Numbered from the stretch's first letter, positions 3-27,104 are shown. The stretch: 32,000 bases of DNA from Thermoproteus tenax Kra 1 (GCF_000253055.1 NC_016070.1:840001-872000), one strand, 5' to 3'. Program-made: numbers and translations. The notes: generated by a model from the letters alone, not told the origin.

Positions 3-2108
3 GCTAGTGCGACCGTCGAGATTCCTGTAAACTATACTTTTCTCGACACTCTTCTCAATAATGCAACGCTCTTCAACGACTACGTGATCAACACGTTCTT
101 CTCGACAGTAGTGGGCAAAATTGCTCAAAGTGTTGCAAAATACTTTGCAAATTCAGGTATAAACAACCCGCCGTATAGGGTTATAGGAGGTCCGTTCTCA
201 GCAGGCAACCTTCATGGTTTTAGTTATAACCAGTTCGGCGAAATTAGCGGATTTCTCTTTGACTATTCGTACTACTATATATCCAGCTCTTTTAATTATT
301 GGGGACTTCCATTTACAAATATATGGGCCTTTATCCCCTATGGCGCGCTAGTCCGCGGCGACATCATCACAGTGCAGTACCCCGTGGGGGGCATCGTCGA
401 CATGATGTCTGGAGCTGACAAGGCTGGGTCACTGGTGTCCATCGGAGCCTGCGGCTTCGAGGTGCCCACCGGCTACGCGAGCGGGCTGAACTATTCGGCG
501 TGGAACGGGACGAGTCTAGAGCTGGGCGGCAACAAGACCGGCGAGGAGCTAGTGCTGTACCCGATGGCCCAGTTTGCCCCCCAGTACGGCCCCAACTGGT
601 TCGGCGATCTTGCCCTCTATTCGTGGCTCTATCCTCAGGCCGATTCGCCCAAAGAATCGGCGTCAGGACAGTTTGTCTCAGTCTTAAACACGACGTGGAC
701 CGCTCAGTTCATAATCGGCAAGACGGGCGAAGCGCCGATAATAACGTCGCAGTCTGTAGGGAAAGTGGCCTCCTGGAACCAAGCTGATGCAATACCGCAC
801 ACCGAGTATGCCGACATACTCTACCACTACGCCCCAACGTGCGTCCCGCCGCAGGCGAACAACGGAGGCGGCGGAGGCAGCGGCATAGTGGTGGGCCCGC
901 CTCCTACACCGCCGCCCCCGCCCGGAGGCACGCCCACTAAAGACGGCATAATTCTATGGGAGTTGGTCCCCCTCGTGGCCTGCAAATCGCTCTTCTGCGA
1001 GCCGGCCAACGCCTGGTGGAATGGGCACTACACCGGCGTCTACGCCCTCCCGAACATAGCGTACGGCATCGCCGTAGAGTGGACGGGCAGCTCTCCGACA
1101 AACGTCACTATATACGTCGACTCGCCCTTGGCCAGGTTCATCAACGGCTCTTGGATCCACGGGAGCCCGCTGACGATGAAGGTGTTCGGGAGGGCGGTAG
1201 AGGCGTTCAATCTGACTCTGGGCACGTTCGAGCTCGACCCCGGCGTCTGGTACCTCGTGTTGCCCGGCCGCGCGGTCCCGCTCGGGAACGGGCCGGATCC
1301 GCCGCAGACCTCGGGCTGGTCGGCCGTGCCGCCCGCGTGGTTCATTTCGCCGCGCTGGAGCTCCAACGGGACGCGGGATGTGCACTTCCTGTGGTTCAAA
1401 GTGGGGGGCGCTCTGTATGGGGACACCTACACGGTCGTTGTGCCGGACGTGCTCTACAGAGTCGACAACAACTTCACAAAGATCGCAACGCCCGAGAGCG
1501 AGGTCAGACTGCTCCTCTATCTGCCTACCGGGGGATGGGCCACCTATCCGCCCAACTACGTCGGCTATACGCCCAACGACACGCGGCTCGGCCTATTGCC
1601 CTTCAGGTCCTACACCGGCGGGTACGAGTACTGGACCGGCTTTGAATACGACGACACGACCGCCTTCGCGGGCTCGTTGGCTGCGGCGGGGAGGCTGTTC
1701 AATCTGACCCTCGGGGGCCAACCGGTGCTCAACGCCACAGTGGAGCAGATAGACGTGAGGGCCGCCGTCGAGGTGGGGCCCTCGGGCGTCTCAGTGGAGT
1801 CGAGCGACCCAGCCGACACCATCGGATACTACATCTACCTCCGCCGCAACGGGACGTGGGTTATGCGGGCCTTCTGCCCCGGCTCACAGATCCAGCTTCC
1901 GCCGAACCTCACCATATGGCCGTGGGACCCCGCGCTGGTGGTGCCGGCAGTATATCACGTCGGGAGGATCCGCGAGAACGGCACCATACTCTATCCAGTG
2001 GGCCTCGGCTCCGTGGTCTTCAACTGGTGGTCGCTCCCGCCGTACGCGGGAGGGCAGAGCTCGGTAGACCAGTTTATAAAGGCCGGAGTCTGCGAGCCGG
2101 TGAAGTAG
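3..2108 (+). CDS. Large secreted/cell-surface glycoprotein; N-terminus lies upstream of the window
   Basis: The frame is open from nt 3, so the GTG at 84 in the ORF track is only the first in-window start. The stop is TAG at 2106-2108. There are at least 14 N-x-S/T sequons. A Gly5 plus Pro-rich linker (NNGGGGGSGIVVGPPPTPPPPPGGTP, about 858-935) separates two domains. No enzyme motif was recognised. Confidence 0.6.
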   Translation, partial: ASATVEIPVNYTFLDTLLNNATLFNDYVINTFFSTVVGKIAQSVAKYFANSGINNPPYRVIGGPFSAGNLHGFSYNQFGEISGFLFDYSYYYISSSFNYWGLPFTNIWAFIPYGALVRGDIITVQYPVGGIVDMMSGADKAGSLVSIGACGFEVPTGYASGLNYSAWNGTSLELGGNKTGEELVLYPMAQFAPQYGPNWFGDLALYSWLYPQADSPKESASGQFVSVLNTTWTAQFIIGKTGEAPIITSQSVGKVASWNQADAIPHTEYADILYHYAPTCVPPQANNGGGGGSGIVVGPPPTPPPPPGGTPTKDGIILWELVPLVACKSLFCEPANAWWNGHYTGVYALPNIAYGIAVEWTGSSPTNVTIYVDSPLARFINGSWIHGSPLTMKVFGRAVEAFNLTLGTFELDPGVWYLVLPGRAVPLGNGPDPPQTSGWSAVPPAWFISPRWSSNGTRDVHFLWFKVGGALYGDTYTVVVPDVLYRVDNNFTKIATPESEVRLLLYLPTGGWATYPPNYVGYTPNDTRLGLLPFRSYTGGYEYWTGFEYDDTTAFAGSLAAAGRLFNLTLGGQPVLNATVEQIDVRAAVEVGPSGVSVESSDPADTIGYYIYLRRNGTWVMRAFCPGSQIQLPPNLTIWPWDPALVVPAVYHVGRIRENGTILYPVGLGSVVFNWWSLPPYAGGQSSVDQFIKAGVCEPVK

Positions 2109-2128
2109 CCGATCTGTTGAACGTCCAA

Positions 2129-2173
2129 TTTACAACCGAAAATCCCGCCATTTAGGGCGGGGAGCGCGGTCAT
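2129..2173 (+). repeat. Solo copy (a) of the dispersed palindromic repeat: TTACAACCGAAAAT-CCCGCC-ATTTA-GGGCGGGG-AGCGCGGTCAT
   Basis: Positions 2144-2173 match the reverse complement of 13312-13341 at 29 of 30 positions. It lies about 20 nt after the glycoprotein stop and is followed by a T6 run at 2180-2185. Confidence 0.85.
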
Positions 2174-2954: not shown

Positions 2955-3170
2955 CGGCAAGCTTCGCCCTTTAGGGCGGGGCCGGATTTAGGCTAGCGTC
3001 TATGGCAGAGCAATAAAGAGAGGGGTCTAATAACGCGCTCCATGCTCCAGCTGCAGCACGCTAACCCCAGAGAGTGGCAACGGGCGAGATCCCCATTGTG
3101 GAGGTTCCACATGAGCGTGGAGGGGATCGTAATGTTTTTATCAACATTGCGATGAACGCCTATGAGTCCG
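2955..3170 (+). repeat. Decayed copy (b) of the GC-rich promoter-bearing repeat unit (candidate ncRNA, + strand)
   Basis: It has the palindrome CGCCC-TTTA-GGGCG at 2965-2978, the box GGATTTAGGC at 2984-2993, and the conserved ATGGCAGAG at 3002-3010, which is followed by TAA after 3 sense codons. Positions 3042-3103 are homologous to the reverse complement of 21465-21522. The unit ends in the hairpin AATGTT-TTTATC-AACATT, which includes a T5 run (about 3131-3148). Confidence 0.5.
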
Positions 3171-3876: not shown

Positions 3877-6345
3877 TCATTTTTCCAGGCGGGAGAGTCT
3901 GTCGAGCAACTTCCTATACTCATCCTTCAACCTCTCTACCTCCTCTCTGAGCCTCTGGTATTCCGCGCCCCTCTCTTGGGCCCTCCTTATCTTCTCGATG
4001 ACTTCGCGCGCCATCCTTCTGATTCTGCCGTCGACGTCCTTCTCTGCAGTCTCCTGTAGCTGAGGCAGTAGGCGCGGATCAAGTAGCTCCAGAGCGGCAG
4101 TCACGGCGGCCGCCCTAATGCGGTAGCTCTCATCCCTCAAGCTCCTAGTCACAACTTCGATGACCTCGCGGCGCGGACCGAACTTGGCCAAGGCCTGTAC
4201 CGCAGTCATCCTTATCCATGTGGGCTGATCCTCAGAGGCGTATCTGAGTACTATGGCGAGCGCCTCCTCAGTGCCCAACTCGGCGAGTCCCTCTATTGCT
4301 CCGCGCGTTATAATGTCCATGTGGCCTCCGTAGCTTAACGCTCTCTTCAAGCTATGCTCAGCGAAAGCCCACTTTATCTTCCCAAGGGACTTAGCGGCCT
4401 CGTACCTTACGTAATAGCTCTCGGAGCTATCGTGGAGTATGCGGTCTAGGAACTCCGCAGCCTCAACTCTTCTTGCCGTCCCCAACGCCTCAACGATGGC
4501 CCGGCGCGCGCGAGGGCTTTTGACATCTTTATATGCTTCAATTAGGGCCTCGACGGCCTCCCTCGTGCCAATATGCCCTAGAGCCCTGGCGGCCTCAGCG
4601 ACGACCCCCCAGAAATTGTCGCGGAGCGCCCCCCTTAGATATTCTACGGCCTTCCTGCTGCCGTTCTTTCTGAGGCCCTCGACAGCTTGAATTCTGCAGT
4701 AGAGGTTCTCGTCTCTGAGCATTGTTCCAAGGACCTCTACGGGATAATTTACATCGACCACTTTCAACAGCTTGAACTCCGGATCGATGCAAACATATTT
4801 GATCCCCGGCTCAAGGTGTATCTCGACCCTCTTTTCGTTGAAGTTTATAGTTCGCCTCTCCCTCCTTGTCTCATACACTAAGTCGATTTCTAAAGGCAAA
4901 GTGTATAGGGGATAGCTGTCGTCGCCTTGAGCCTGCTCCAACACTAGACGCAATCCGTTGTTTTTGTTCCAAACGGCCTTTATGACTGGGTGGCCCGCCG
5001 AGTAGAAAAACTGGCGCCAGAGCCACTCTAGGTCGGCGCCGCTGGCCTCCTCCAAGCTCTTCCTCAGATCCTCTATATCTGCGTTTTTGTATTGATATTT
5101 AGTCAAGAAGAGCTTTAGGCCCGCTCTGAAGGCTCCATCGCCCAAAATGCTTCTGACCATATGTAGCACTACGGAGCCCTTTTCGTACGAGTGTCTATCG
5201 AACATCTCCTCAGGTAAGGCGTATAGGTTTACGACTATGGGACGCGCATAGCGGGACGAATATTCGTTTAGATACGTCTTGAGATTAGAATATATCTCAT
5301 ATAGATATTCCTCCCTGCCCTTAGAGCGCTCAGTCCACAGTGCCTCTATGAACGTAGCGAACGATTCGTTGATGGCTATATGGCTCCAGTCCTTTGCGGT
5401 GACCAAGTCTCCGAACCACTGGTGGGCCATCTCGTGCGCTACGAGGGGGTCCGATGTGAAGTCCTCGTTCGCACACGGAAACTCATCGTAGGGACAGTGG
5501 GCGTGTTTGTCATGGAGCGTCCAGTCGGTCAATATCGTGGCTGTGGCGTTCTCCATTCCGCCATAGATGAACTCTTGTACCACTATCTGGGCGTATCTCT
5601 CGTAGGGGTACGGAACTCCGAGGTATTCCGAGAAGAACTTCATTATGTCGCAAGTATGGTAAAAGGTGTGACGGGCTAGGCCAGCGCGCCCCCTGGGCAG
5701 ATAGTACTCCAACTCTACATCGCCACACCTCTCTCTTAAGATCTCAAAGTCTCCGGCAGCGAACGCTATGAGGTACGGAGACATGGGATGCCTCATTTCC
5801 CACACGTATGTCACCGCATCGCCGAGATCCCTCCTCTCTTGCAACACGCCGTTGCTGACGGCTACATACGGCTTTCTGACCGTAATGGCTAGACTAAAGG
5901 GGAATTTGATGTTTGGCGAATCAGGCAGAGGCAGCCAATATCTATTGTCCTCGGCCTCGCCTTGGGTCCAGACCATGGGCACTCTATAGGGATGGCCTCT
6001 GTCGGGCTTGACAAAGTAGAGCCCCTTCCTGGGCTTCGCCATATAAGCCACCTCGACCTCGCCCTCCTCGCCTGCGCGCAGCTTCAGTTCCAGCGACAGA
6101 GTCTCTCCATCGTAGCTGTACTGCGTAGACGCGCGCAGGACTTCTAGCTCCACCGCATCGAGCGCGATGGTTGCGAGATCTCTTTTAGCCCTAATCTTGT
6201 ACCTAACCGATCCTTTGATCGCAGCGTTATCGAAATCGACCTCCACGTTGGCCCAGAGCTTAAGGACGTCGAAGTCGTATTTGCGCGGGAATCTGGGGAG
6301 ATATTCCGGGAAGGCGAAATCCCTGCCCAGGAGATATTTGCTCAT
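3877..6345 (-). CDS. M1-family aminopeptidase (aminopeptidase N / tricorn-interacting-factor-like) with C-terminal HEAT repeats
   Basis: It carries the GGMEN exopeptidase motif, the HEMAHQWFGD zinc site plus the downstream NESFATF glutamate, and a C-terminal third made of repeated HEAT-like helices (…AVEALG…, …AAKSLG…, …AIEGLA…). Confidence 0.93.
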   Translation of the reverse strand: MSKYLLGRDFAFPEYLPRFPRKYDFDVLKLWANVEVDFDNAAIKGSVRYKIRAKRDLATIALDAVELEVLRASTQYSYDGETLSLELKLRAGEEGEVEVAYMAKPRKGLYFVKPDRGHPYRVPMVWTQGEAEDNRYWLPLPDSPNIKFPFSLAITVRKPYVAVSNGVLQERRDLGDAVTYVWEMRHPMSPYLIAFAAGDFEILRERCGDVELEYYLPRGRAGLARHTFYHTCDIMKFFSEYLGVPYPYERYAQIVVQEFIYGGMENATATILTDWTLHDKHAHCPYDEFPCANEDFTSDPLVAHEMAHQWFGDLVTAKDWSHIAINESFATFIEALWTERSKGREEYLYEIYSNLKTYLNEYSSRYARPIVVNLYALPEEMFDRHSYEKGSVVLHMVRSILGDGAFRAGLKLFLTKYQYKNADIEDLRKSLEEASGADLEWLWRQFFYSAGHPVIKAVWNKNNGLRLVLEQAQGDDSYPLYTLPLEIDLVYETRRERRTINFNEKRVEIHLEPGIKYVCIDPEFKLLKVVDVNYPVEVLGTMLRDENLYCRIQAVEGLRKNGSRKAVEYLRGALRDNFWGVVAEAARALGHIGTREAVEALIEAYKDVKSPRARRAIVEALGTARRVEAAEFLDRILHDSSESYYVRYEAAKSLGKIKWAFAEHSLKRALSYGGHMDIITRGAIEGLAELGTEEALAIVLRYASEDQPTWIRMTAVQALAKFGPRREVIEVVTRSLRDESYRIRAAAVTAALELLDPRLLPQLQETAEKDVDGRIRRMAREVIEKIRRAQERGAEYQRLREEVERLKDEYRKLLDRLSRLEK

Positions 6346-6392
6346 AGGAGAGAATCAGCAAATCAATATTAGCGTTGCGCATAGGTATGACT

Positions 6393-6428
6393 CCTGCCCT
6401 AAAGGGCGAGGCTTTCAGGTGTAATAAC
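6393..6428 (-). repeat. Solo copy (c) of the palindromic repeat in the divergent aminopeptidase/PhoH intergenic region
   Basis: The + strand reads CCTGCCC-TAAA-GGGCGAGG-CTTTCAGGTGTAA. The tail TTCAG(G/T)TGTAA is shared with copies at 13843-13856 and (reverse complement) 2129-2140. It is about 55 nt upstream of the aminopeptidase ATG and directly upstream of the PhoH TATA box AACTTTTAAAC. Confidence 0.75.
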
Positions 6429-9343: not shown

Positions 9344-11311
9344 GTGGCTCTCCGTCTTTCTGTGCGTTTTCGCGTTGTAATAAACGGCGTTGAGGTCGTC
9401 AGAGAGTGGAGTTGGGACAAGATATTGAGCGTTAAAGAGGAGTTGAAAAGAATGGGCTTTAGATGGACCGGCGATGGATGGGTGGGTAGAGTGCGCGACC
9501 CAATGCAGCTCTATACTTTAAGGACGCTCTTAGATCTCACAGACGACGAGCTCGGAAGGCTACAACAGACGGTCCAAGCGCCTCGAGGCGACGTAGTGAT
9601 GGTCGTCGGCGAGATACCCGAAAAGCTGAGGCCCTACGTCGTTGCGAGCTACGGCGCCTCAAGCGTCGTATCAGTCTCCAGATTTATCAGAGACTTCGTG
9701 TCCTCCGACAAGACCGCGATAGCACAATCGCAGTCCTACGAGGACTACGTAAGGAGGGCTGCAGAAGAGTTCAGAGCGCTGTTGAGAGGGCTGGACGTGC
9801 GCGGCGATCTGAAAAGCGCTATAGACTCGGCGATTGAAATTGCGTTGAGCTCGGAGAGGCTCAAATCGCTCTATGAGCGCAGAGTGGCGTGGAGAACCGT
9901 CGAGTTGGGCCCCACCTCAGCGGCTTTGAACTTCGCCAGCAAGGAGTTAGTAGACGAGCTGAGGTCGTTTAAGCTGGCCTACAATATTGTTGGAAAAAAC
10001 GGCGAGGTGAAGCAAACGTTTATACAATTAGTGAAGGTTTCAAGAGATAAAGAAAAGATAATATTGAAATATCCTATATTTCTCCGGAATAAAATATCAG
10101 AAATCTTAAAAAAGTATGGATATATTACTAAGATATCAGATATATCATATAAGAAACTGAGCTATAGGAGCTCGGTCAGGTTGTTGGAGTTCCAGAGAGC
10201 AGCGCTAGAGGCGTGGATCAAGTCGGGCTACCGCGGGACTGTGGCGGTGCCCACCGGCGGAGGAAAGACCTTTATAGGGCTGGGGGCTATGGCCGAGACA
10301 GGCGAGGCCACGTTGATACTCGCAGTGACAAAGGAGTTGGCTTTGCAGTGGATAGAGAGGGTAAGGAAATACCTCGGCGTCCAGGCAGGCCTACTAGGGG
10401 GCGGAAGCCACGATGTGAGAGATGTCACGGTGGCTATTTATAATTCGGCGGTAAAGTATATAGACGAGCTCATGAACAGATTCGGCCTGGTAATCTTCGA
10501 CGAGGCCCACCACGTCCCGGCTGAGACGTTCAAGGAGGTGGCTCTGGCTCTGGACTCGCCGAAGAGGTTGGCGCTCTCGGCGACGCCCAAGAGGGACGAT
10601 GGGAACGAACTGTTGATCTTCGAGGCGGTGGGCCCCCTAGTCTTCAGAGCGTCCTACAGAGAGATGATAGAGGCAGGTTTGGTAGTGCCCATAGAGCACT
10701 ACAGAGTCTACGTCAGATTGACGCCGGAGGAGGAGTCTGAGTACAAATCCGCCGAGAGGTCCACTGATAATGCCATTGTTCTCAGGAATATAGCCGCTCA
10801 AGCCTCAGCCAAGATACAAGCGGCCATTGATATAATTAAACGGGAAGTGTCTCTGGGCCACAAAGTGATAGTGTTTACCCAATTCTTGGAACAGGCCAGG
10901 GCAATATATCAGCGGTTAACGGAGCACCAGATACGCGCCGAGCTGATAACTTCGGAGGAGAGGGACAGAGACGCGGCTTTCGCTCGCTTTGCCTCAGGCC
11001 TAGTGCGCGTGGTGGTGACCACCACAGTGTTGGACGAGGGAGTCGACGTGCCTGACGCGGACGTTGCAGTGGTAGTCAGCGGTAGCGGCTCAAAGAGACA
11101 GATGATACAGCGAGTGGGCAGAATAGTGAGGGCATCCCAAGGGAAAAGCGTCGGACGAGTCTACGAGCTGGTGGCGAGAGGGACAATTGAGGAGGCTCTA
11201 TCGGAGAGTAGACACGTGGACGACATAGTAGAGGAGAGCGTATGCAAAAGGCTTTCTGAGAGCGCGCTTAGAGAGTTCCTGTCTAAGACATCGTTGTTAG
11301 AATACAAATAA
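9344..11311 (+). CDS. XPB/Rad25-type SF2 DNA helicase with a ~280-aa N-terminal extension
   Basis: Helicase motifs are present: AVPTGGGKTF (I), IFDEAHH (II), LSATPKRDDG (III plus RED-like RDD), VLDEGVDVPD (V), QRVGRIVR (VI). The start is uncertain. GTG 9344 gives the maximal ORF, but GTG 9362 fits a leaderless start better. Confidence 0.8.
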   Translation: MALRLSVRFRVVINGVEVVREWSWDKILSVKEELKRMGFRWTGDGWVGRVRDPMQLYTLRTLLDLTDDELGRLQQTVQAPRGDVVMVVGEIPEKLRPYVVASYGASSVVSVSRFIRDFVSSDKTAIAQSQSYEDYVRRAAEEFRALLRGLDVRGDLKSAIDSAIEIALSSERLKSLYERRVAWRTVELGPTSAALNFASKELVDELRSFKLAYNIVGKNGEVKQTFIQLVKVSRDKEKIILKYPIFLRNKISEILKKYGYITKISDISYKKLSYRSSVRLLEFQRAALEAWIKSGYRGTVAVPTGGGKTFIGLGAMAETGEATLILAVTKELALQWIERVRKYLGVQAGLLGGGSHDVRDVTVAIYNSAVKYIDELMNRFGLVIFDEAHHVPAETFKEVALALDSPKRLALSATPKRDDGNELLIFEAVGPLVFRASYREMIEAGLVVPIEHYRVYVRLTPEEESEYKSAERSTDNAIVLRNIAAQASAKIQAAIDIIKREVSLGHKVIVFTQFLEQARAIYQRLTEHQIRAELITSEERDRDAAFARFASGLVRVVVTTTVLDEGVDVPDADVAVVVSGSGSKRQMIQRVGRIVRASQGKSVGRVYELVARGTIEEALSESRHVDDIVEESVCKRLSESALREFLSKTSLLEYK

Positions 11312-11317
11312 AATTTC

Positions 11318-11497
11318 GTGGAGACAACTGAGGCTTGGCTCTATCTGAGCTTGGAAACTGTTATCGGGATTATAATTTTATCAATAATAGGTATAATAGT
11401 AATAAATATTTTTAAAAATATAAATCAATTATATAATTATATAGAGAATGATATAAAATATATATTAAATACAACAAGATTGATTATAAGGATATGA
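11318..11497 (+). CDS. Small hydrophobic ORF 1 of the AT-rich island (59 aa, not in the ORF track)
   Basis: I translated it by hand: VETTEAWLYLSLETVIGIIILSIIGIIVINIFKNINQLYNYIENDIKYILNTTRLIIRI. It has one TM segment, and its TGA overlaps the next ATG (ATGA at 11494-11497). The start codon is uncertain (GTG 11318 or TTG 11351). Confidence 0.35.
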   Translation: METTEAWLYLSLETVIGIIILSIIGIIVINIFKNINQLYNYIENDIKYILNTTRLIIRI

Positions 11498-11610
11498 GAC
11501 TTCTATATCAAATATTAAAAATAATTTTAATATTATTTGAAATAATAATACTATATGATATACTAATTCAATTTAAAATGCTCTTATCTTTGTTTCGATG
11601 GAGTCCATAA
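11494..11610 (+). CDS. Small hydrophobic ORF 2 of the AT-rich island (38 aa)
   Basis: I translated it by hand: MRLLYQILKIILILFEIIILYDILIQFKMLLSLFRWSP. It overlaps ORF 1 by 4 nt and ORF 3 by 13 nt. Confidence 0.3.
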   Translation: MRLLYQILKIILILFEIIILYDILIQFKMLLSLFRWSP

Positions 11611-11870
11611 CTGAGTTAATCTTTATAATTTTTATATTATTATTTCTATTACTAATCTATTATTTAATTTTAAAATTAATATTTAATATATCATTAATAA
11701 AATATAAATTTATTTTATCAAGATATGCTGTTTGTGGCGCTAACTATACTTTTACTTATTATTCGAATGAGTATAATATCTCTGCGGTCAAGGCGTGTTT
11801 AAAAATTATAGTGTTTTCCAATGGCTCCTACGCTGTTTCAACGGCTTACCTTTATGTGAGATCACGATGA
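11598..11870 (+). CDS. Small membrane-anchored ORF 3 of the AT-rich island (90 aa)
   Basis: It has an N-terminal TM helix (LIFIIFILLFLLLIYYLILKLIF). The Tyr/Ser-rich tail has 2 Cys and four N-x-S/T sequons. A 90-codon open frame in such AT-rich DNA is unexpected by chance. Confidence 0.45.
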   Translation: MESITELIFIIFILLFLLLIYYLILKLIFNISLIKYKFILSRYAVCGANYTFTYYSNEYNISAVKACLKIIVFSNGSYAVSTAYLYVRSR

Positions 11871-12132
11871 AGGTAGATCAACGGATTAAGGCGATCAGAA
11901 TCGTCTAGCTTCTTCACACATCGTCTATCGGCCGGACTTCGTCATTAGGATGCACCGTTTATTCGCCTTAAATTTTTAACTTCTCTTTAAAAATAACGTT
12001 ATTACTATATTAAACTATTATTTTTTATTATATTATTATGATTTAATTTAATTACTAAATAGAAAAATTAATTGATTATTATTTATGATCAAGAATACGT
12101 TAAATTAAAAAATATAGCACAAATTAGGCGCT

Positions 12133-12583: not shown

Positions 12584-13315
12584 GTGGACGAGCTGAGGGA
12601 AGTGGCCGACCTGTTAAATAGATCTAATTGCGCTGTAGCGCTCACTGGTGCCGGCGTCTCGACTCCCAGCGGAATTCCGGACTTTAGAGGACCTCAAGGG
12701 CTCTGGAGAAGAATAGATCCACGGAGGTTCGAGATTGCGTACTTCTATGCGCATCCCGGCGAGGTCTGGAGGTTGTTCGTGGATACGTTTCTTGCTCAAG
12801 CTGAGGCTAAGCCTAACCCTGCTCATCTGGCCTTGGCCGAACTAGAGGCCAAGGGGAAGATCTGTGCGGTGATAACGCAGAACGTCGACGGTCTGCATCA
12901 GAGGGCTGGCTCCAAGAGAGTGATCGAGCTACACGGCTCTTTGCGATATGCAGTATGTACGTCATGCGGCGCAAGATTTCCACTCTCAGAGGTCCTTAAA
13001 GGCCCTATAGACGATGCGCCGAGATGTAGAGTATGTGGCGGCGTGTTGAAGCCAGATGTGGTATTCTTTGGGGAGCCGTTGCCCTACGAGGCTCTACAAG
13101 ATGCAATGATGTTGGCGGAGCTCTCGGATGTATTTATGGCGATCGGAACATCTCTAGCGGTGGCGCCGGCCAATAGGTTGCCGTTAATAGCTAAAAGAAA
13201 GGGGGCAAAGTTGGTGATAATAAACCAAGACCCCACGGAGCTTGACGAATTCGCCGATATTATAATAAGAGGTAAAGTTGAAGAAATCTTGCCGCGCATA
13301 GCGGAGCTGATATGA
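12584..13315 (+). CDS. cobB: NAD-dependent protein deacylase, Sir2 family
   Basis: Motifs present: GAGVSTPSGIPDFRG, TQNVDGLH, ELHGS, and the zinc ribbon CxxC...CxxC (CTSCG...CRVCGG). The GTG start is about 22 nt after the GCATTTTAAAGGC box. The stop codon lies inside repeat copy (d). Confidence 0.93.
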   Translation: MDELREVADLLNRSNCAVALTGAGVSTPSGIPDFRGPQGLWRRIDPRRFEIAYFYAHPGEVWRLFVDTFLAQAEAKPNPAHLALAELEAKGKICAVITQNVDGLHQRAGSKRVIELHGSLRYAVCTSCGARFPLSEVLKGPIDDAPRCRVCGGVLKPDVVFFGEPLPYEALQDAMMLAELSDVFMAIGTSLAVAPANRLPLIAKRKGAKLVIINQDPTELDEFADIIIRGKVEEILPRIAELI

Positions 13316-13876
13316 CCGCGCTCCCCGCCCTAAAGGGCGGGGTTTCTCCTCGTCCACGCCTTCATCGGCATCCAAGATACCTCCGGCGTGAGCTCATTGG
13401 GCATGGGGCCGGGCGGCACGCCTCTATCCCTCTCGGCGTGGACGTGCTGCGTCCGCCTTCGACGTACAGCCCTATCCAGCGCCCGGCCAGCGCCTCCCCA
13501 GGCCTCTGCGGAGGCCTTCGGCGGCCCCAGACGTCGGCTCTGTACTCGCTCAGCCCCTCATACGCCGCGTATTTGGGACAGCCCGCGTAGACCTCCGACG
13601 CGGCCTCCCGGAGCATCCCGGCGGGCCCTCCGATCGCCGTATATCCGCAGTGCCCCTCCCCCGTCCTCCAGGACGCCCTTAGTCTGGGCCGCCCCATCCA
13701 CCGCTGGGCCGCCCCTCGTTGGAGCTCGCCCCCCGCGCGGGGCCCGCCCCTGCTCCTCCCTCTTTTTCTGTCATCTTCGCTAACTTTGCCATGAAAAATA
13801 CGCCAATCGGCTTAAATCCATCCCCCATCCTAAAGGGTGGGGCCTTCAGTTGTAAGCGGTGGATGTAGGAGCCCAT
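13312..13876 (-). repeat. GC-rich repeat unit A (candidate structured ncRNA on the minus strand), bounded by two copies of the palindrome
   Basis: Palindrome (e) is at 13822-13842, the box GGATTTAAGCC at 13819-13809, ATGGCAAAG at 13792-13784, and palindrome (d) at 13323-13342. The 5' ~120 nt is homologous to unit B. Positions 13345-13410 are homologous to 26785-26850. Only broken ORFs are present (37 codons, then a 111-codon ORF in another frame). Confidence 0.55.
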
Positions 13877-17628: not shown

Positions 17629-18312
17629 ATGCGCGCTCTGATCCTCGCCGGAGGTTTCGGCAAGAGGCTCGCCCCCCTCACCAACGAGGTACCCAAGCCA
17701 CTCGTGCCCGTGGCCGGGAAGCCCATCCTCGTCAGACAGATCGAGTGGCTGAGGGAACAAGGAGTGACCGACTTTGTCGTGGCCGTCGGCTATCTGCGCC
17801 ACAAGGTCTTCGAGGCGCTGGGCGATGGGAGGAAGTATGGAGTGAGGATATTCTACAGCGTCGAGGAGGAGCCCCTCGGCACAGGGGGCGCCATAAAGAA
17901 CGCGGCGCCCTTTCTGGAGGACGACGTGTTCCTGGTCACCAACGGCGATGTGTTGACCAATCTGCGCGTGGAGCCCCTACTGAGGGCGCTCGAGGGCGCC
18001 GACGCCGCCATAGCCCTCGTCCCCCTCAGAAGCCCCTACGGCGTAGTGGAGATAGACGGCGAGGGGCGCGTGCTGGCCTTCAGAGAGAAGCCCGTGCTGG
18101 AGCACTACATCAACGCCGGCGTCTACGCCATGAGGAGGGAGGCGCTCAAGGATCTCCCCGACAGAGGCAACATAGAGGAGACGTTGTTCCCCAGATTGGC
18201 CGAGAGGAGGAGGCTGAGGGCCGTGGTCTATAAAGACGCCTTCTGGCGCTCCATAGACACCCTCAAGGATTTAGAGGAGGCTGAGAAGATGTTGAGCGAT
18301 GGAAAATCTTGA
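17629..18312 (+). CDS. Sugar-1-phosphate nucleotidyltransferase
   Basis: [32 protein letters not shown] is the classic NTP-transferase N-terminus, and EEPLGTGGA is also present. The TATA box GTATATAAAAATAG lies about 25 nt upstream. GTG 17623 is an alternative start. Confidence 0.88.
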
Positions 18313-18937
18313 AGACCTACTCCTGAAATACGCCTTATTGAACGCAGTTAAGTACGGAGGCAGAGCCGACGCTAAGGCAGTGATGTCTAAGTTGATGGCC
18401 GAAAGAGCGGATCTGAGGCCAAGGGCGCGCGAGATAAAAGAGCTTGTGGAACAGCTGGTGGCCAAGGTAAACGCCATGAGCCCTCAGGAGCAGTATACGC
18501 TCTTGGCATCGCGCTGGCCTGAGGCTCTGGAGGAGAGGAGGCCCAGGGAGGAGAAAAGGCCTGGAATCGACTCGCTTCCCGCGCTTCCAAACGCTGAGAG
18601 GGGCGTCGTGGTCCGCTTCGCACCCAACCCAGACTTCGTCCTACATCTCGGCAGCGCGCGGCCGGCCGTGCTCAACTACGCCTACAAGCTGAAATACGGA
18701 GGCAAGTTCATACTTAGGTTCGAAGACACAGATCCCAAGATAAAGAGGCCGTTGATAACGGAGGAGGTTAACGCCTATGAGGCAATAAGGGAAGATCTGA
18801 GGTGGCTCGGCGTGAAGTGGGATGAAGAGTACATTCAATCGCAGCGTATGGAGATATACTACGAATATGCGAGAAGGCTCATCGAGTTAGCGGAGCCTAC
18901 GTGGACACTTGCAAGACCGAGGAGTGGCGCAAGCTGA
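18299..18937 (+). CDS. gltX: Glutamyl-tRNA synthetase, N-terminal segment (frame 1 of a frameshifted gene)
   Basis: It has the archaeal GluRS N-terminal helical domain plus the class I catalytic start [21 protein letters not shown] (HIGH-type HLGS). Homology ends at ...YARRLIEL, and 15 non-homologous codons follow before the stop. Confidence 0.85.
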
Positions 18938-20019
18938 GGAACGCGGGTAAGGCGTGCCCCCACAGAGGGCAGTCGGTGGAGGAGAACTTAGAGCTCTGGG
19001 ACAAAATGCTGAGGGGGGACTTCAGAGAGGGCGAGTCGGTGCTCAGAGTGAAGACAGACTTGACGCACCCAGACCCCAGCGTGAGGGACTGGGTGGCTTT
19101 CAGGATCATAGACGTCGAGAGGAACCCGCACCCTCTAGTCGGAGCTAAATATCACGTGTGGCCCACTTACAACTTCGCCGTATCTATCGACGACCATCTA
19201 ATGGGTGTGACGCACGTGCTCCGCGCGCAAGAACACAGCGTGAACACAGTAAAACAGTCCTTCGTCTTCAAACACTTCGGCTGGACCCAGCCGGTGACTA
19301 TACACTTCGGCAGACTGAAGGTGGAGGGCGGATCTCTCAGCAAGTCTAAACTGAAGGCCCTTAAGTTGCGATACGACGATATAACTATGCCGACCTTGGC
19401 AGGGCTCAGGAGCCGCGGGATCCAGCCGGAGGCAATATGGGAGCTCATACTGAGCGTTGGGATCAAGCCCTCCGACGCGACAGTATCCCTTGCTAACCTC
19501 TTCTCTATCAATAGAAAGATTTTGGACCCGAAGGCGGACAGATATATGTTTGTCCCCGAACCCGTGAAGTTGGTTATCAACCTGCCCAAGAGGATCGTTG
19601 CGAAGATACCGGTGCACCCCAGCTTCCCGGAGAGGGGCCATAGAGAGTACGAGCTAGGCCCCGGGGAGGTCTCACTGTATATCTCCAGGAAGGACGCCGA
19701 ACTAGGCTCCTTTAGGCTAATGGAGTTGGCCAACGTAGTTGTGCGCAGAAAAGAGGGAGATGTATACTACGGAGAGGTGGTCGGATATACGATAGACGAG
19801 GCGCGCGAGGCGAAGATGCCCATAATCCAGTGGACGCCCGATAATTCAAGGGAGGCGGTCGTGATAAGGCCTGTGGCCGCCGGCAAGAAGGCCGTCGAGA
19901 GAGGCCTCATAGAGCCTGGCGCCGAGACTCTGAGGGAGGGCGATATAGTACAGTTCCTTAGATATGGATTTGTCAAATTGGGCTTCCAGAGACACTATGG
20001 AGTTCATATATATCCACGA
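18892..20019 (+). CDS. gltX: Glutamyl-tRNA synthetase, remainder (second frame); no stop codon before the DUF354 ATG
   Basis: [25 protein letters not shown] continues the GluRS sequence. [26 protein letters not shown] and an LSKSK (KMSKS-type) motif are present, with the C-terminal [11 protein letters not shown]. This frame is open from 18826. The listed ORF 18901..21000 continues in frame into the next gene. Confidence 0.85.
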
Positions 20020-21000
20020 ATGAGGGCTCTTTTCGACGCTCTTACTCCGAAACAAGCAAGGATCGCAGCAATCCTAAAGCGGGAGGGCGGCCTACAGCTG
20101 ACGATCACATGTAGGGAGTACTACCATCTGAGGGACATGTTGGAGCAATACAAAGTCGACTACATCTGCATAGGTAGGTACGGGGAGACGACCGAGGAGA
20201 AGTTGGTCGAGGGGCTCAAAAGACAGCTCCAGATGGTCGAGATAATGAGGGGCTTGGACGGAGTAGTGTCCTTCCCGAGCCCCGATGCCGTAAGGACCGC
20301 GTTTGGCCTCGGGAAGAAGTCTGTGGTATTGAACGACACGCCGCATGCCTATCACGCCAATTCGCTGACTATACCGCTCTCCGATGCGCTGATAGCGCCG
20401 TCCGCGATACCGCAAGACGCATGGAGGCGTTATTGTCCCAAGAAAGTGATGACTTTCGACGGCGTGTTTGAGTATATGTGGACGTCGAGACATACCCCCA
20501 ACTTAGAGAGCGTGAGGAAGTTGGGCCTGGAGCCAGGCAGCTACGTGGTCTTTAGACCCGAGGAGGCCAAGGCGGCGTACTACCAGTGGAACAACGTCCA
20601 GCTTAGGGCCAAGCTAGTCGAACTTGTCAAGGAGATGGGCTACGTTGTGGTCAATATCCCCAGATATCCAGACCAAGTGATCGAGGGAGCTATAAATTTA
20701 ATAAAGGCGGTGGACCACTTAGATCTAGCGTATTATGCCGCAGCGGTCATCACAGGTGGGCTGACTATGTCGACGGAGGCCGCTCTGTTAGGCACGCCCG
20801 CCGTTTCGTACTTTCCCGGCGACGTGTATATAGATAGGTATCTGGAGAGGGCCGGGGCCCCACTCCTTAGGTGCTCTTCAATGGACGAGTGCATCCATGT
20901 TGTCAAGAAGGCGTTAAGTATGGGCAGAGCGCCCCCGCCCAAGATGGAGGATCCGCTCAAGGCGATCGTCGCGGCGGTTCAGGAAATATTCGGAGGATAA
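20020..21000 (+). CDS. DUF354 family protein (GT-B glycosyltransferase-like)
   Basis: [32 protein letters not shown] resembles the DUF354 N-terminus (MKI.FDI..P..V..F...I..L...GHEV.ITAR) as I remember it. At 326 aa it fits the family size. ATG 20020 is in frame with the upstream gltX segment. Confidence 0.65.
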
Positions 21001-21440: not shown

Positions 21441-21826
21441 TCGCCCATCTCTGTTACCTCCAGACTGCCCACACCGTGGGGGCCTCGGCCGTTGCCCGGG
21501 GTTAGTGGGCCGCGGCTGGGGCAGGCATTGCGGCGTCCCCCGCCGGGGCCATCTTGCGTTTGAGTTTGCCCCCGCGCGGCGCCCGCCCTTGCCCCCTTTT
21601 TCTTGGCCCTCTTCACAAGCTCTGCCATGAAAATAGATGGCTTAAGACCTACCCCATCCTAAAGGGCGGGGCTTGCTGTTTGTACTGTCAGCCACATCCC
21701 CGGCCCTGGGGGTACGGCCGATCAGCCGCGCCCGTGCGCCGGGGCACGGCCGGCCTCCTCCGCCCCGCCCTCGCGGCGTCTGGCGGGGGCGGGCCAAAAA
21801 TCTGACCCCGGGGGAGGGCCGGGACA
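21441..21826 (-). repeat. GC-rich repeat unit B: one 5' module plus the tail of a second unit, joined at palindrome (f)
   Basis: The palindrome CCCCATCC-TAAA-GGGCGGGG is at 21652-21671, the box GGTCTTAAGCC at 21649-21639, and ATGGCAGAG at 21628-21620. Positions 21620-21510 are homologous to unit A and 21465-21522 to unit b. Positions 21740-21800 resemble the CCTCCTCG plus stem-loop 3' module of units A and C. Confidence 0.55.
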
Positions 21827-26721: not shown

Positions 26722-26940
26722 GTGAACCGTCTATCCCTAGGCGCCCACCGCTGATTGCAGCCGGCCGCTCGTGCCCAGGCGCTTCCTCCTCGCCCGCGCC
26801 TTCGCTGACAGCCCGGCTGCCTCCGGCGCGGGGCCATCGGGCATGGGGGCAACGGCCCTTTTCCAGAGGCAGGCCCGATCGGGCCGCTCGTGGGACGCCG
26901 CCCCTCGCCGCTGTAGATACACGCGTTTAAGCCCTCCGCC
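26722..26940 (-). repeat. GC-rich repeat unit C (3' stem-loop module of the family; promoter module unclear)
   Basis: Positions 26785-26850 align ungapped with 13345-13410 at 48 of 66 positions by my hand count. A nested stem-loop has identical geometry in both copies. A TTTAAGCC box at 26926-26933 reads in the opposite orientation to units A and B. Confidence 0.5.
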
Positions 26941-27104
26941 TGCGCCAGAACAGAATTTTCTCAACGCCTCGGGTCGCCGGTCCCTAAGGAGCTCGCGGTG
27001 CGCCTGGGTTGTTCAGCGTAGCTTGGACACCCTCAGACCCCTCGGACGAAGCCAGTGTAGCAAAAGAGGAGCCACAGCTATAAAGGCCGGTATACTGTGT
27101 CTCA

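Follow-up and report, generated by a model that had tools for sequence, protein, structure and literature searches.

In the insertion sequence (IS) IS608, the transposase TnpA recognizes the top strand, where it binds imperfect subterminal palindromes. The element inserts 3' of the tetranucleotide TTAC, which lies outside the element and doubles as the left cleavage site. TTAC pairs with a 4-nt guide, AAAG, located at the 5' foot of the left hairpin; right cleavage occurs 10 nt 3' of the right hairpin, and A and T just 3' of the left hairpin form base triples (PMC3201880, PMC5934647). This report concerns a palindrome that occurs six times in 32 kb of the genome of Thermoproteus tenax Kra1 (positions 840001-872000; this whole stretch is called the window). 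We estimate a probability of roughly 0.85 that these palindromes are the subterminal transposase-binding hairpins of IS200/IS605 insertion sequences, surviving as gene-less derivatives.

Such derivatives have been described in haloarchaea. The PATEs of Haloquadratum (Dyall-Smith et al. 2011) are free of transposase genes, carry IS605-like near-terminal palindromes, and have neither inverted terminal repeats nor target duplications. Their 52-bp "terminal-only" forms were attributed to repeat-mediated deletion between two palindromes and are possibly mobilisable (PMC3119063). Related hairpins have also been found in RNAs. The "RE-like tetraloop" of Gomes-Filho et al. 2015, an 8-bp stem with a UUCA or UUUA loop, occurs in IS1341 sense-overlapping RNAs (sotRNAs), in PATE-derived RNAs, and in the Rfam family HgcC (PMC4615843).

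A recurrent palindrome with conserved flanks

A search of the window with CCCCGCCCTTTAGGGCGGGG, allowing at most three mismatches, found six palindromes of the form CCCCGCCC-TTTA-GGGCGGGG, against an expectation of 0 from 100 dinucleotide-preserving shuffles. The palindrome is real, and its recurrence is highly nonrandom. The hairpins, numbered c1 to c6, are located at 2143-2162 (+), 2962-2981 (+), 6392-6411 (-), 13323-13342 (-), 13823-13842 (-), and 21652-21671 (-); c4 matches the search sequence perfectly. An earlier prediction made from the sequence (the original prediction) had also counted six copies, at coordinates that differ from ours by only 1 to 3 nt.

Conservation extends beyond the stem. 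In an oriented alignment and a rescan at four mismatches, a 5' flank of the form TTAC-A(A/C)C(C/T)GAA(A/G)(A/G) precedes c1, c3, and c5; the flank of c6 is degraded (GTACAAACAGCAAG), and neither c2 nor c4 has a 5' flank of the TTAC type. On the 3' side, c1 and c4 share the tail AGCGCGGTCAT, which is shortened to GTCAT in c3, and copies c5, c6, and c2 continue with G(A/T)..GG(A/T)(T/C)TTA(A/G)GC and then ATGGCA(A/G)AG. Over hairpin and tail, c1 and c4 are identical at 29 of 31 positions. A repeat finder, which recovers the same family, reports their surroundings (2140-2176 and 13309-13345) as a 37-nt inverted-repeat pair (I1) with a 92% match. When folded as single-stranded DNA, c4 forms the only perfect 8-bp stem (-11 kcal/mol), c1 and c2 fold well, and c3, c5, and c6 are imperfect, at -4 to -5.5 kcal/mol. 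The window contains no match to Rfam at gathering thresholds and no tRNAs.

All six copies reside between genes or at the 3' ends of genes. The published gene table, which places upp at 842268-842900 and the Sir2 gene at 852584-853315, corresponds to window coordinates plus 840,000. Several claims of the original prediction are sound as observations: the shared flanks (5' at c1, c3, and c5 and weaker at c6; 3' at c1 and c4), the intergenic or gene-end placement of every copy, and the identities of the neighboring genes (upp, M50 peptidase, M1 aminopeptidase, PhoH, Sir2/cobB, a DUF309 protein, and an AAA_18 kinase). The two open reading frames (ORFs) at 1991-2173 (-) and 13312-13590 (+), which start with MTALPALNGG and MTALPALKGG, are indeed read-throughs of the repeat.

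Orthologous loci and transposon counterparts

The original prediction had named the comparison of orthologous loci as a test of mobility. Relatives of the region were collected around orthologs of cobB: one locus from a Thermoproteus species (L123), three from a second Thermoproteus species (L124-L126), and one from Pyrobaculum (L264). Of these, L123 and L124-L126 are syntenic with the window from about 2.7 to 24.7 kb, at about 65-75% DNA identity. In all of these loci, the convergent genes cobB (252-254 aa) and DUF309 have 20-39 nt in common, whereas the corresponding spacer in T. tenax is about 690 bp long and contains c4 and c5. Similarly, in L123 and L124 the gene for a 125-aa protein shares about 50 nt with the AAA_18 kinase gene, but in the window the two are 386 bp apart, around c6. 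In L123 and L124 the spacers between pepN and phoH, orthologous to the spacer of c3, have no palindrome, nor does the spacer between upp and the M50 gene in L123, which corresponds to the site of c2. With up to four mismatches allowed, the window has six hairpins, L123 and L264 have none, and L124 has one, which belongs to an IS copy. Because copies c2 to c6 are absent from the orthologous sites in L123 and L124, with the cobB site empty in L264 too, the comparison shows them to be lineage-specific insertions, gained in the T. tenax lineage.

The same hairpin is found at the ends of transposons. In L124-L126 and in L128, GGAAAG-CC(T/C)CGCCCTTTAGGGCGGGG is located about 40 nt upstream of the ATG of a TnpB-like gene. 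The single copy in L124 reads GGAAAG-CCTCGCCCTTTAGGGCGGGG-ATGC... and stands about 40 nt before a gene with MJ0013 and Cas12f1-like TNB domains (TnpB), whose product has 455 relatives in Thermoproteus and Pyrobaculum metagenomes. This TnpB element (L124-L126, positions 1-700) occupies the place beside the M50 peptidase gene that upp has in T. tenax and L123, and in L125 its tnpB is interrupted by a stop codon. A whole element is present in L127; its left hairpin, a variant without GAAAG, occupies the same position, and its right end finishes with ...GGGGAGGAGGTCAG / ...GCGGGGAGGAGGTCAG.

Metagenomes contain many more examples. A 27-nt pattern derived from the T. tenax left ends (TTACAMCYGAARGCCYCRCCCTTTAGG) matched at least 120 contigs. 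Among the matches listed are 112 distinct contexts, in which the sequences 5' of TTAC are unrelated, and the hairpin is followed in about 52 cases by AGGAGGTCAG and then unrelated DNA (solos) and in about 46 cases by ATGG, a TATA box (TTTATAAGCC or similar), and a gene. A census of the hairpins in 873 kb of the matches listed gave at least 54 solos, at least 72 left ends, at least 23 right ends, and at least 15 others. Complete elements close with a second hairpin and AGGAGGTCAG, and extend from AACTGAAAG-hairpin, just 3' of TTAC, to hairpin-AGGAGGTCAG. There are four size classes. Elements of about 1.79 kb have two ORFs, of 134 aa and 406-422 aa (TnpA and TnpB; for example, L253 and L257); those of about 1.3-1.47 kb have a single ORF, of 380-430 aa (TnpB only; L263, L245, L207, and L229); others of about 250 nt have no ORF; and the solos measure 39 nt. 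In Pfam, the 134-aa protein is Y1_Tnp (PF01797, IS200-like transposase, E = 8e-42), and the large proteins are OrfB_IS605/TnpB. Judged from these sequences, the T. tenax copies are shown to have ends built like those of TnpA- and TnpB-encoding elements. The suggestion that the repeat might be the terminal sequence of a small non-autonomous mobile element is upheld on both counts, by the absence of copies in relatives and by the hairpin's place at the boundaries of TnpA/TnpB elements.

The stem itself is an imperfect palindrome: a T.G mismatch at pair 3 is conserved in 131 of 185 hairpins, and a few pairs have compensatory changes. A scan of genome contigs for the bare hairpin (CCCCRCCCTTTAGGRYGGGG) matched many unrelated bacteria and archaea, with one member of the Thermoproteales (a Thermocladium metagenome-assembled genome, L094) among the matches listed, and the bare hairpin is therefore not specific to this lineage. 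In a scan of viral contigs, a solo resembling those of T. tenax (TTACAACTGAAAG-hairpin-AGGAGGTCAG) was found in L130; a search of viral contigs with the TnpB protein for related loci found nothing. In other viral contigs, which have high GC content and look bacterial (L132-L142), GAAAG-CTCCGCCCTTTAGGGCGGGG-TTGATTAC ends a conserved block, and the same hairpin and guide appear to act as an IS end in bacteria as well.

Some metagenomic contigs share a left flank up to TTAC and then differ, with a 39-nt solo in one contig and a full 1.3-kb IS in the other (L249/L250 versus L188, and L169 versus L209/L262). We considered these pairs as cases of core deletion in situ, but they are no proof of it, because the right flanks differ. 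The differing right flanks suggest rearrangement or recombination at the elements rather than simple core deletion.

The likeness to IS608 and ISDra2 is detailed. It includes the TTAC target, the AAAG guide, right cleavage about 10 nt 3' of the hairpin, the dinucleotide AT directly 3' of the left hairpin, and an imperfect palindrome with a conserved mismatch. There are also differences. The distance from TTAC to the hairpin foot is 9 nt in the present family (a 5-nt spacer and AAAG), but 19 nt in IS608, and the right cleavage tetranucleotide is TCAG or TCAT here, but TCAA in IS608; moreover, the T. tenax copies have no tnpA or tnpB. The right tail is 10 nt long and ends in TCAG in the metagenomic family, and is 11 nt long and ends in TCAT in T. 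tenax.

The roles of TTAC, AAAG, and the tail in T. tenax are inferred by analogy with these systems. A Y1 (HUH) transposase, TnpA, would have moved the elements as single-stranded DNA by binding the hairpin, with the 4 nt at its 5' foot (AAAG) recognizing the TTAC target and left cleavage site. The right-end cut would follow TCAG, or TCAT in T. tenax, at about 10 nt 3' of the hairpin. Such a "peel-and-paste" route would produce no target duplication, and inspection found no duplicated flanks around the T. tenax elements. Solos could have formed when the core between two near-identical hairpins was deleted, or when a minimal unit was itself mobilised.

With PATEs, the T. tenax copies have in common that they are gene-less IS605 derivatives with palindromes in direct orientation, a 5' targeting oligonucleotide, and no terminal inverted repeats or target duplication. 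They also share the very short terminal-only versions in which two palindromes are merged, as seen in H. walsbyi and other haloarchaea. They differ in that the host is a hyperthermophilic crenarchaeon (Thermoproteales), that the solos measure 34-40 nt rather than 52 bp, and that the copies look decayed, with no strain-specific recent insertions seen. PATE-type elements are thus known in other archaea but, to our knowledge, have not previously been described for T. tenax.

Known RNA families contain the same module. The consensus of HgcC (RF00062) ends with CCccCGcccUUuAgggCGggGAGGAGGUCAG, and its 3' part is this hairpin (an 8-bp stem with a UUUA or UUCA loop) and AGGAGGUCAG after it. Among sotRNAs with the RE-like tetraloop (RF02656), sot0042 also ends with the hairpin and AGGAGGUCAG; its match is to the hairpin alone. 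Window positions 13304-13383 (-) score 23.3 bits against HgcC, below the gathering score of 50 and lacking the middle of the model, and a metagenomic mini-element of about 250 nt (L147) scores 53 bits, above the threshold.

The T. tenax elements and the gene ends they altered

The six copies can be assigned with good confidence to two solos (c1 and c3), one 540-nt PATE (c4 with c5), and two left ends in decay (c2 and c6). The first solo spans 2134-2173 (+) and consists of AACCGAAAA, the hairpin at 2143-2162, and the right-end tail AGCGCGGTCAT. It is preceded by TTAC at 2130-2133 (+), the presumed target and left cleavage site, in the same position as the TTAC of metagenomic solos, and its layout matches that of the 39-nt solos (AACTGAAAG-hairpin-AGGAGGTCAG). 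The second solo, at 6387-6420 (-), consists of ACCTGAAAG, the hairpin at 6392-6411, and the short tail GTCAT; its TTAC is at 6421-6424, and it is located immediately upstream of the TATA box of the PhoH gene.

Unit A, the 540-nt gene-less IS200/IS605 derivative, occupies 13312-13851 (-), with TTAC at 13852-13855. Its left hairpin is c5 (13823-13842), its right hairpin is c4 (13323-13342), and its right tail is at 13312-13322. The two hairpins both read TTTA on the minus strand and are 500 nt apart in direct orientation, with a left-end flank on one and a right-end flank on the other. Matches between unit A and full IS elements are limited to these two ends. The interior is GC-rich, and searches by tblastn and by blastn with a Thermoproteus TnpB element found no similarity to TnpB there or elsewhere in the window. 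Unit A contains one annotated ORF, TTX_0987, for which a collection of 5.8 billion protein clusters returned no homolog besides itself; we therefore treat unit A as non-coding. The tail AGCGCGGTCAT that c1 and c4 share is specific to T. tenax, differing from the metagenomic consensus AGGAGGTCAG, which suggests a common origin of the two copies in a single sub-family within this lineage.

Unit B, at 21441-21685 (-), comprises the left hairpin c6 (21652-21671) and a homolog, about 130 nt long, of part of unit A (13717-13851; 74% identity over 137 nt). No right end was found for it, and the region is unannotated in the published genome. Downstream of c5 and c6, small proteins starting with MAKLAK and MAELVK were considered as gene candidates and rejected; the similarity between the units runs at the DNA level across a 1-nt indel, and the shared stretch is therefore taken to be non-coding. 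Both units have a TATA-like box 6-7 nt beyond the hairpin (TTTAAGCC at 13812-13819 (-) in unit A, CTTAAGCC at 21637-21644 (-) in unit B), and 16-22 nt farther on comes an ATG. The hairpin c2 (2962-2981, +) is a degenerate left end and is followed by GGATTTAGGC and ATGGCAGAGC, which are weakly similar to units A and B. Copies c1, c3, and c5 combine a guide-type (A/G)AA(A/G) with TTAC, c6 has GTAC, and c2 has no such site; c6 and c2 are decayed left ends. We had considered GTAC and CAAG at c6 as a compensatory pair of cleavage site and guide, and dropped this idea in view of the actual pairing scheme of IS608. The T. tenax elements (34, 40, and 540 nt) are too short or lack an ORF for a transposase.

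A possible seventh, more decayed relic at 26783-26848 (-) has no hairpin and is 74% identical to the part of unit A beside its right end. This 66-nt stretch is in a non-coding, GC-rich spacer of about 380 bp (26722-27100).

The insertions rewrote the 3' ends of three genes: cobB, TTX_0988, and TTX_0999. The cobB ORF (12584-13315) ends with a TGA at 13313-13315 (+) inside ATGACCGCGCT, the reverse complement of the shared tail, so that the stop codon comes from the element's terminal TCAT (ATGA on the plus strand). In a protein alignment, the T. tenax product lacks the last ~10 residues and ends ...IAELI*. At 243 aa it is 5-13 residues shorter than its 29 closest relatives in the database (P0002-P0030), which have 248-256 aa. 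The original prediction had placed the stop codon inside the repeat and proposed that the element replaced the 3' end of cobB; both statements hold. In the same alignments, the DUF309 hydrolase TTX_0988 gains EHATLEPK*, and the C-terminus of the kinase TTX_0999 is replaced at c6 and unit B. A parallel to cobB is found in L127, where the left hairpin of the TnpB element (3945-3964) supplies the TAG stop codon of an upstream PALP-domain gene. Two short-read contigs with an identical cobB (L121 and L122) both stop near window position 13338, inside the hairpin, which is typical of assembly breaks at repeats.

Alternative explanations, present state, and implications

Several observations weigh against an origin from IS200/IS605 elements, or limit how closely it can be traced. 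The relatives are only about 70% identical in DNA, and the insertion boundaries are resolved at the protein level, not to the base. The presence/absence comparison covers c2 to c6, with c1 outside the relatives' loci, and a search for empty sites of the metagenomic solos gave self-matches only. At the cobB and kinase sites, the inserted DNA exceeds the elements bounded by TTAC and TCAT by about 150 nt. These surplus segments, both absent in relatives, lie on the TTAC side, from 13852 to about 14010 (about 155 bp separating unit A's TTAC from the DUF309 gene) and from 21686 to about 21830; they have no clear match, and with their weak GGGCG(G/T)GG..AGGA-like strings may be debris of older right ends or insertions. 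The window has no TnpA gene and no recognizable tnpB remnant, and the available part of the published gene table lists fragments of COG0675 (TnpB, IS605 OrfB) and no COG1943 (TnpA). Finally, the copy density is known from 32 kb only (six copies, or 0.19 per kb).

The family name that the original prediction had given, REP/RAYT-like, is not borne out. In a true REP/RAYT system, as in Pseudomonas and E. coli, palindromes are maintained and spread by one domesticated Y1 transposase, the RAYT. The T. tenax solos do recall REPs and REPINs in being short (34-40 nt), extragenic, and palindromic with conserved flanks, in their relation to IS200/IS605 ends, and in their association with Y1 HUH enzymes; REP/RAYT systems are evolutionary kin of IS200/IS605, and PATEs have been treated as counterparts of REPINs (PMC4615843). 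Yet the T. tenax copies occur singly or in direct orientation 500 nt apart rather than as inverted REPIN pairs. They have no 5' motif of the GTAG type, and their flanks correspond to IS608-type ends (TTAC/AAAG and a 10-11-nt tail), which are common to autonomous TnpA and TnpB elements. No RAYT gene is in evidence, there being no Y1 transposase in the window or in the available part of the published annotation, and three of the six hairpins have decayed. We regard a REP/RAYT system as improbable. The palindromes could instead be operators, at which a dimeric transcription factor coregulates the neighboring genes, and an 8-4-8 palindrome a few to a few tens of nucleotides upstream of TATA-like boxes, as at c2, c3, c5, and c6, has the shape and place expected of one. 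However, the palindrome is absent from the orthologous promoters (upp-M50 in L123; pepN-phoH in L123 and L124), c1 and c4 are flanked by convergent 3' ends, the flanks that belong to the conserved unit are asymmetric and match transposon ends, and the TATA boxes beside c5 and c6 are part of the inserted element. An operator is accordingly very improbable. Hairpin terminators or insulators between genes, the least probable of all the explanations, would suit c1 and c4, which lie between convergent genes, and a T run at 2181-2186 follows c1. Four of the six copies, though, are at 5' ends or within inserted DNA, and in relatives the convergent genes overlap directly, with no conserved hairpin. 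Archaeal termination, moreover, uses oligo-T tracts, not hairpins. The original prediction had offered both a transcription-factor site and a terminator or insulator, and neither is supported, given the distribution of the copies over promoters and convergent 3' ends and their lack of conservation at orthologous promoters.

Exaptation as small-RNA genes (like HgcC, sotRNAs, or omega-RNA; for example, as an antisense RNA to the cobB 3' end) would add to a transposon origin rather than replace it. Units A and B retain a TATA-like box and ATG after the hairpin, and the right end of unit A has the sub-threshold HgcC match. Tetraloop RNAs derived from PATEs are expressed in Halobacterium, and one of them affects growth when overexpressed (PMC4615843). 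On the other hand, the folding energy of unit A is barely better than that of shuffled sequences (z = -1.7), its interior is without relatives, and the hairpins are decaying. We consider such genes unlikely, if less so than the three alternatives above. It is similarly doubtful that the 34-40-nt solos are archaeal equivalents of REPs, minimal substrates that a Y1 transposase could still mobilise in trans, or that the solos and unit A have been exapted as promoters and structured ends of small RNAs (like HgcC or omega-RNA) with effects on neighboring genes; if either were true, a genome described as nearly free of mobile elements would hide a large population of such units.

If the palindromes are IS200/IS605 ends, as we favor, the elements in T. 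tenax today are probably immobile fossils rather than a live system, because three of the six hairpins are degraded and the available part of the annotation has TnpB fragments and no TnpA. The relic TATA box and ATG of the left ends could drive non-coding transcripts resembling HgcC.

Two other features of the window were observed. At 18299-21000, the glutamyl-tRNA synthetase gene is split over two frames (18299-18937, and from 18901 onward), annotated as TTX_0996 and TTX_0997. The second part runs in frame into a DUF354-like glycosyltransferase; relatives have two separate, intact genes. An AT-rich island at 11200-12100 (27-30% GC, compared with about 55% elsewhere), with AT-rich direct and inverted repeats, lies between genes for an XPB-like helicase and a ferredoxin. 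In L123 this interval contains a gene for a 60-aa protein and a small ATP-cone gene; in L124-L126 it contains small ORFs, and the ATP-cone gene is missing.

Only five transposase ORFs or fragments were listed when the T. tenax genome was published, in a paper that described IS elements as "rare" and did not mention the palindromes (PMC3189178). On our reading, IS200/IS605 activity nonetheless left six small scars in 32 kb. Three genes were truncated or extended by them; they also account for at least one spurious annotated ORF (TTX_0987) and put relic promoters and hairpins beside housekeeping genes. This is not a new kind of system; rather, one deeply conserved module of hairpin and tail ties together a crenarchaeal repeat, haloarchaeal PATEs, HgcC, and the right ends of TnpB/omega-RNA elements, a link of use in annotation and in the search for TnpB guide RNAs.

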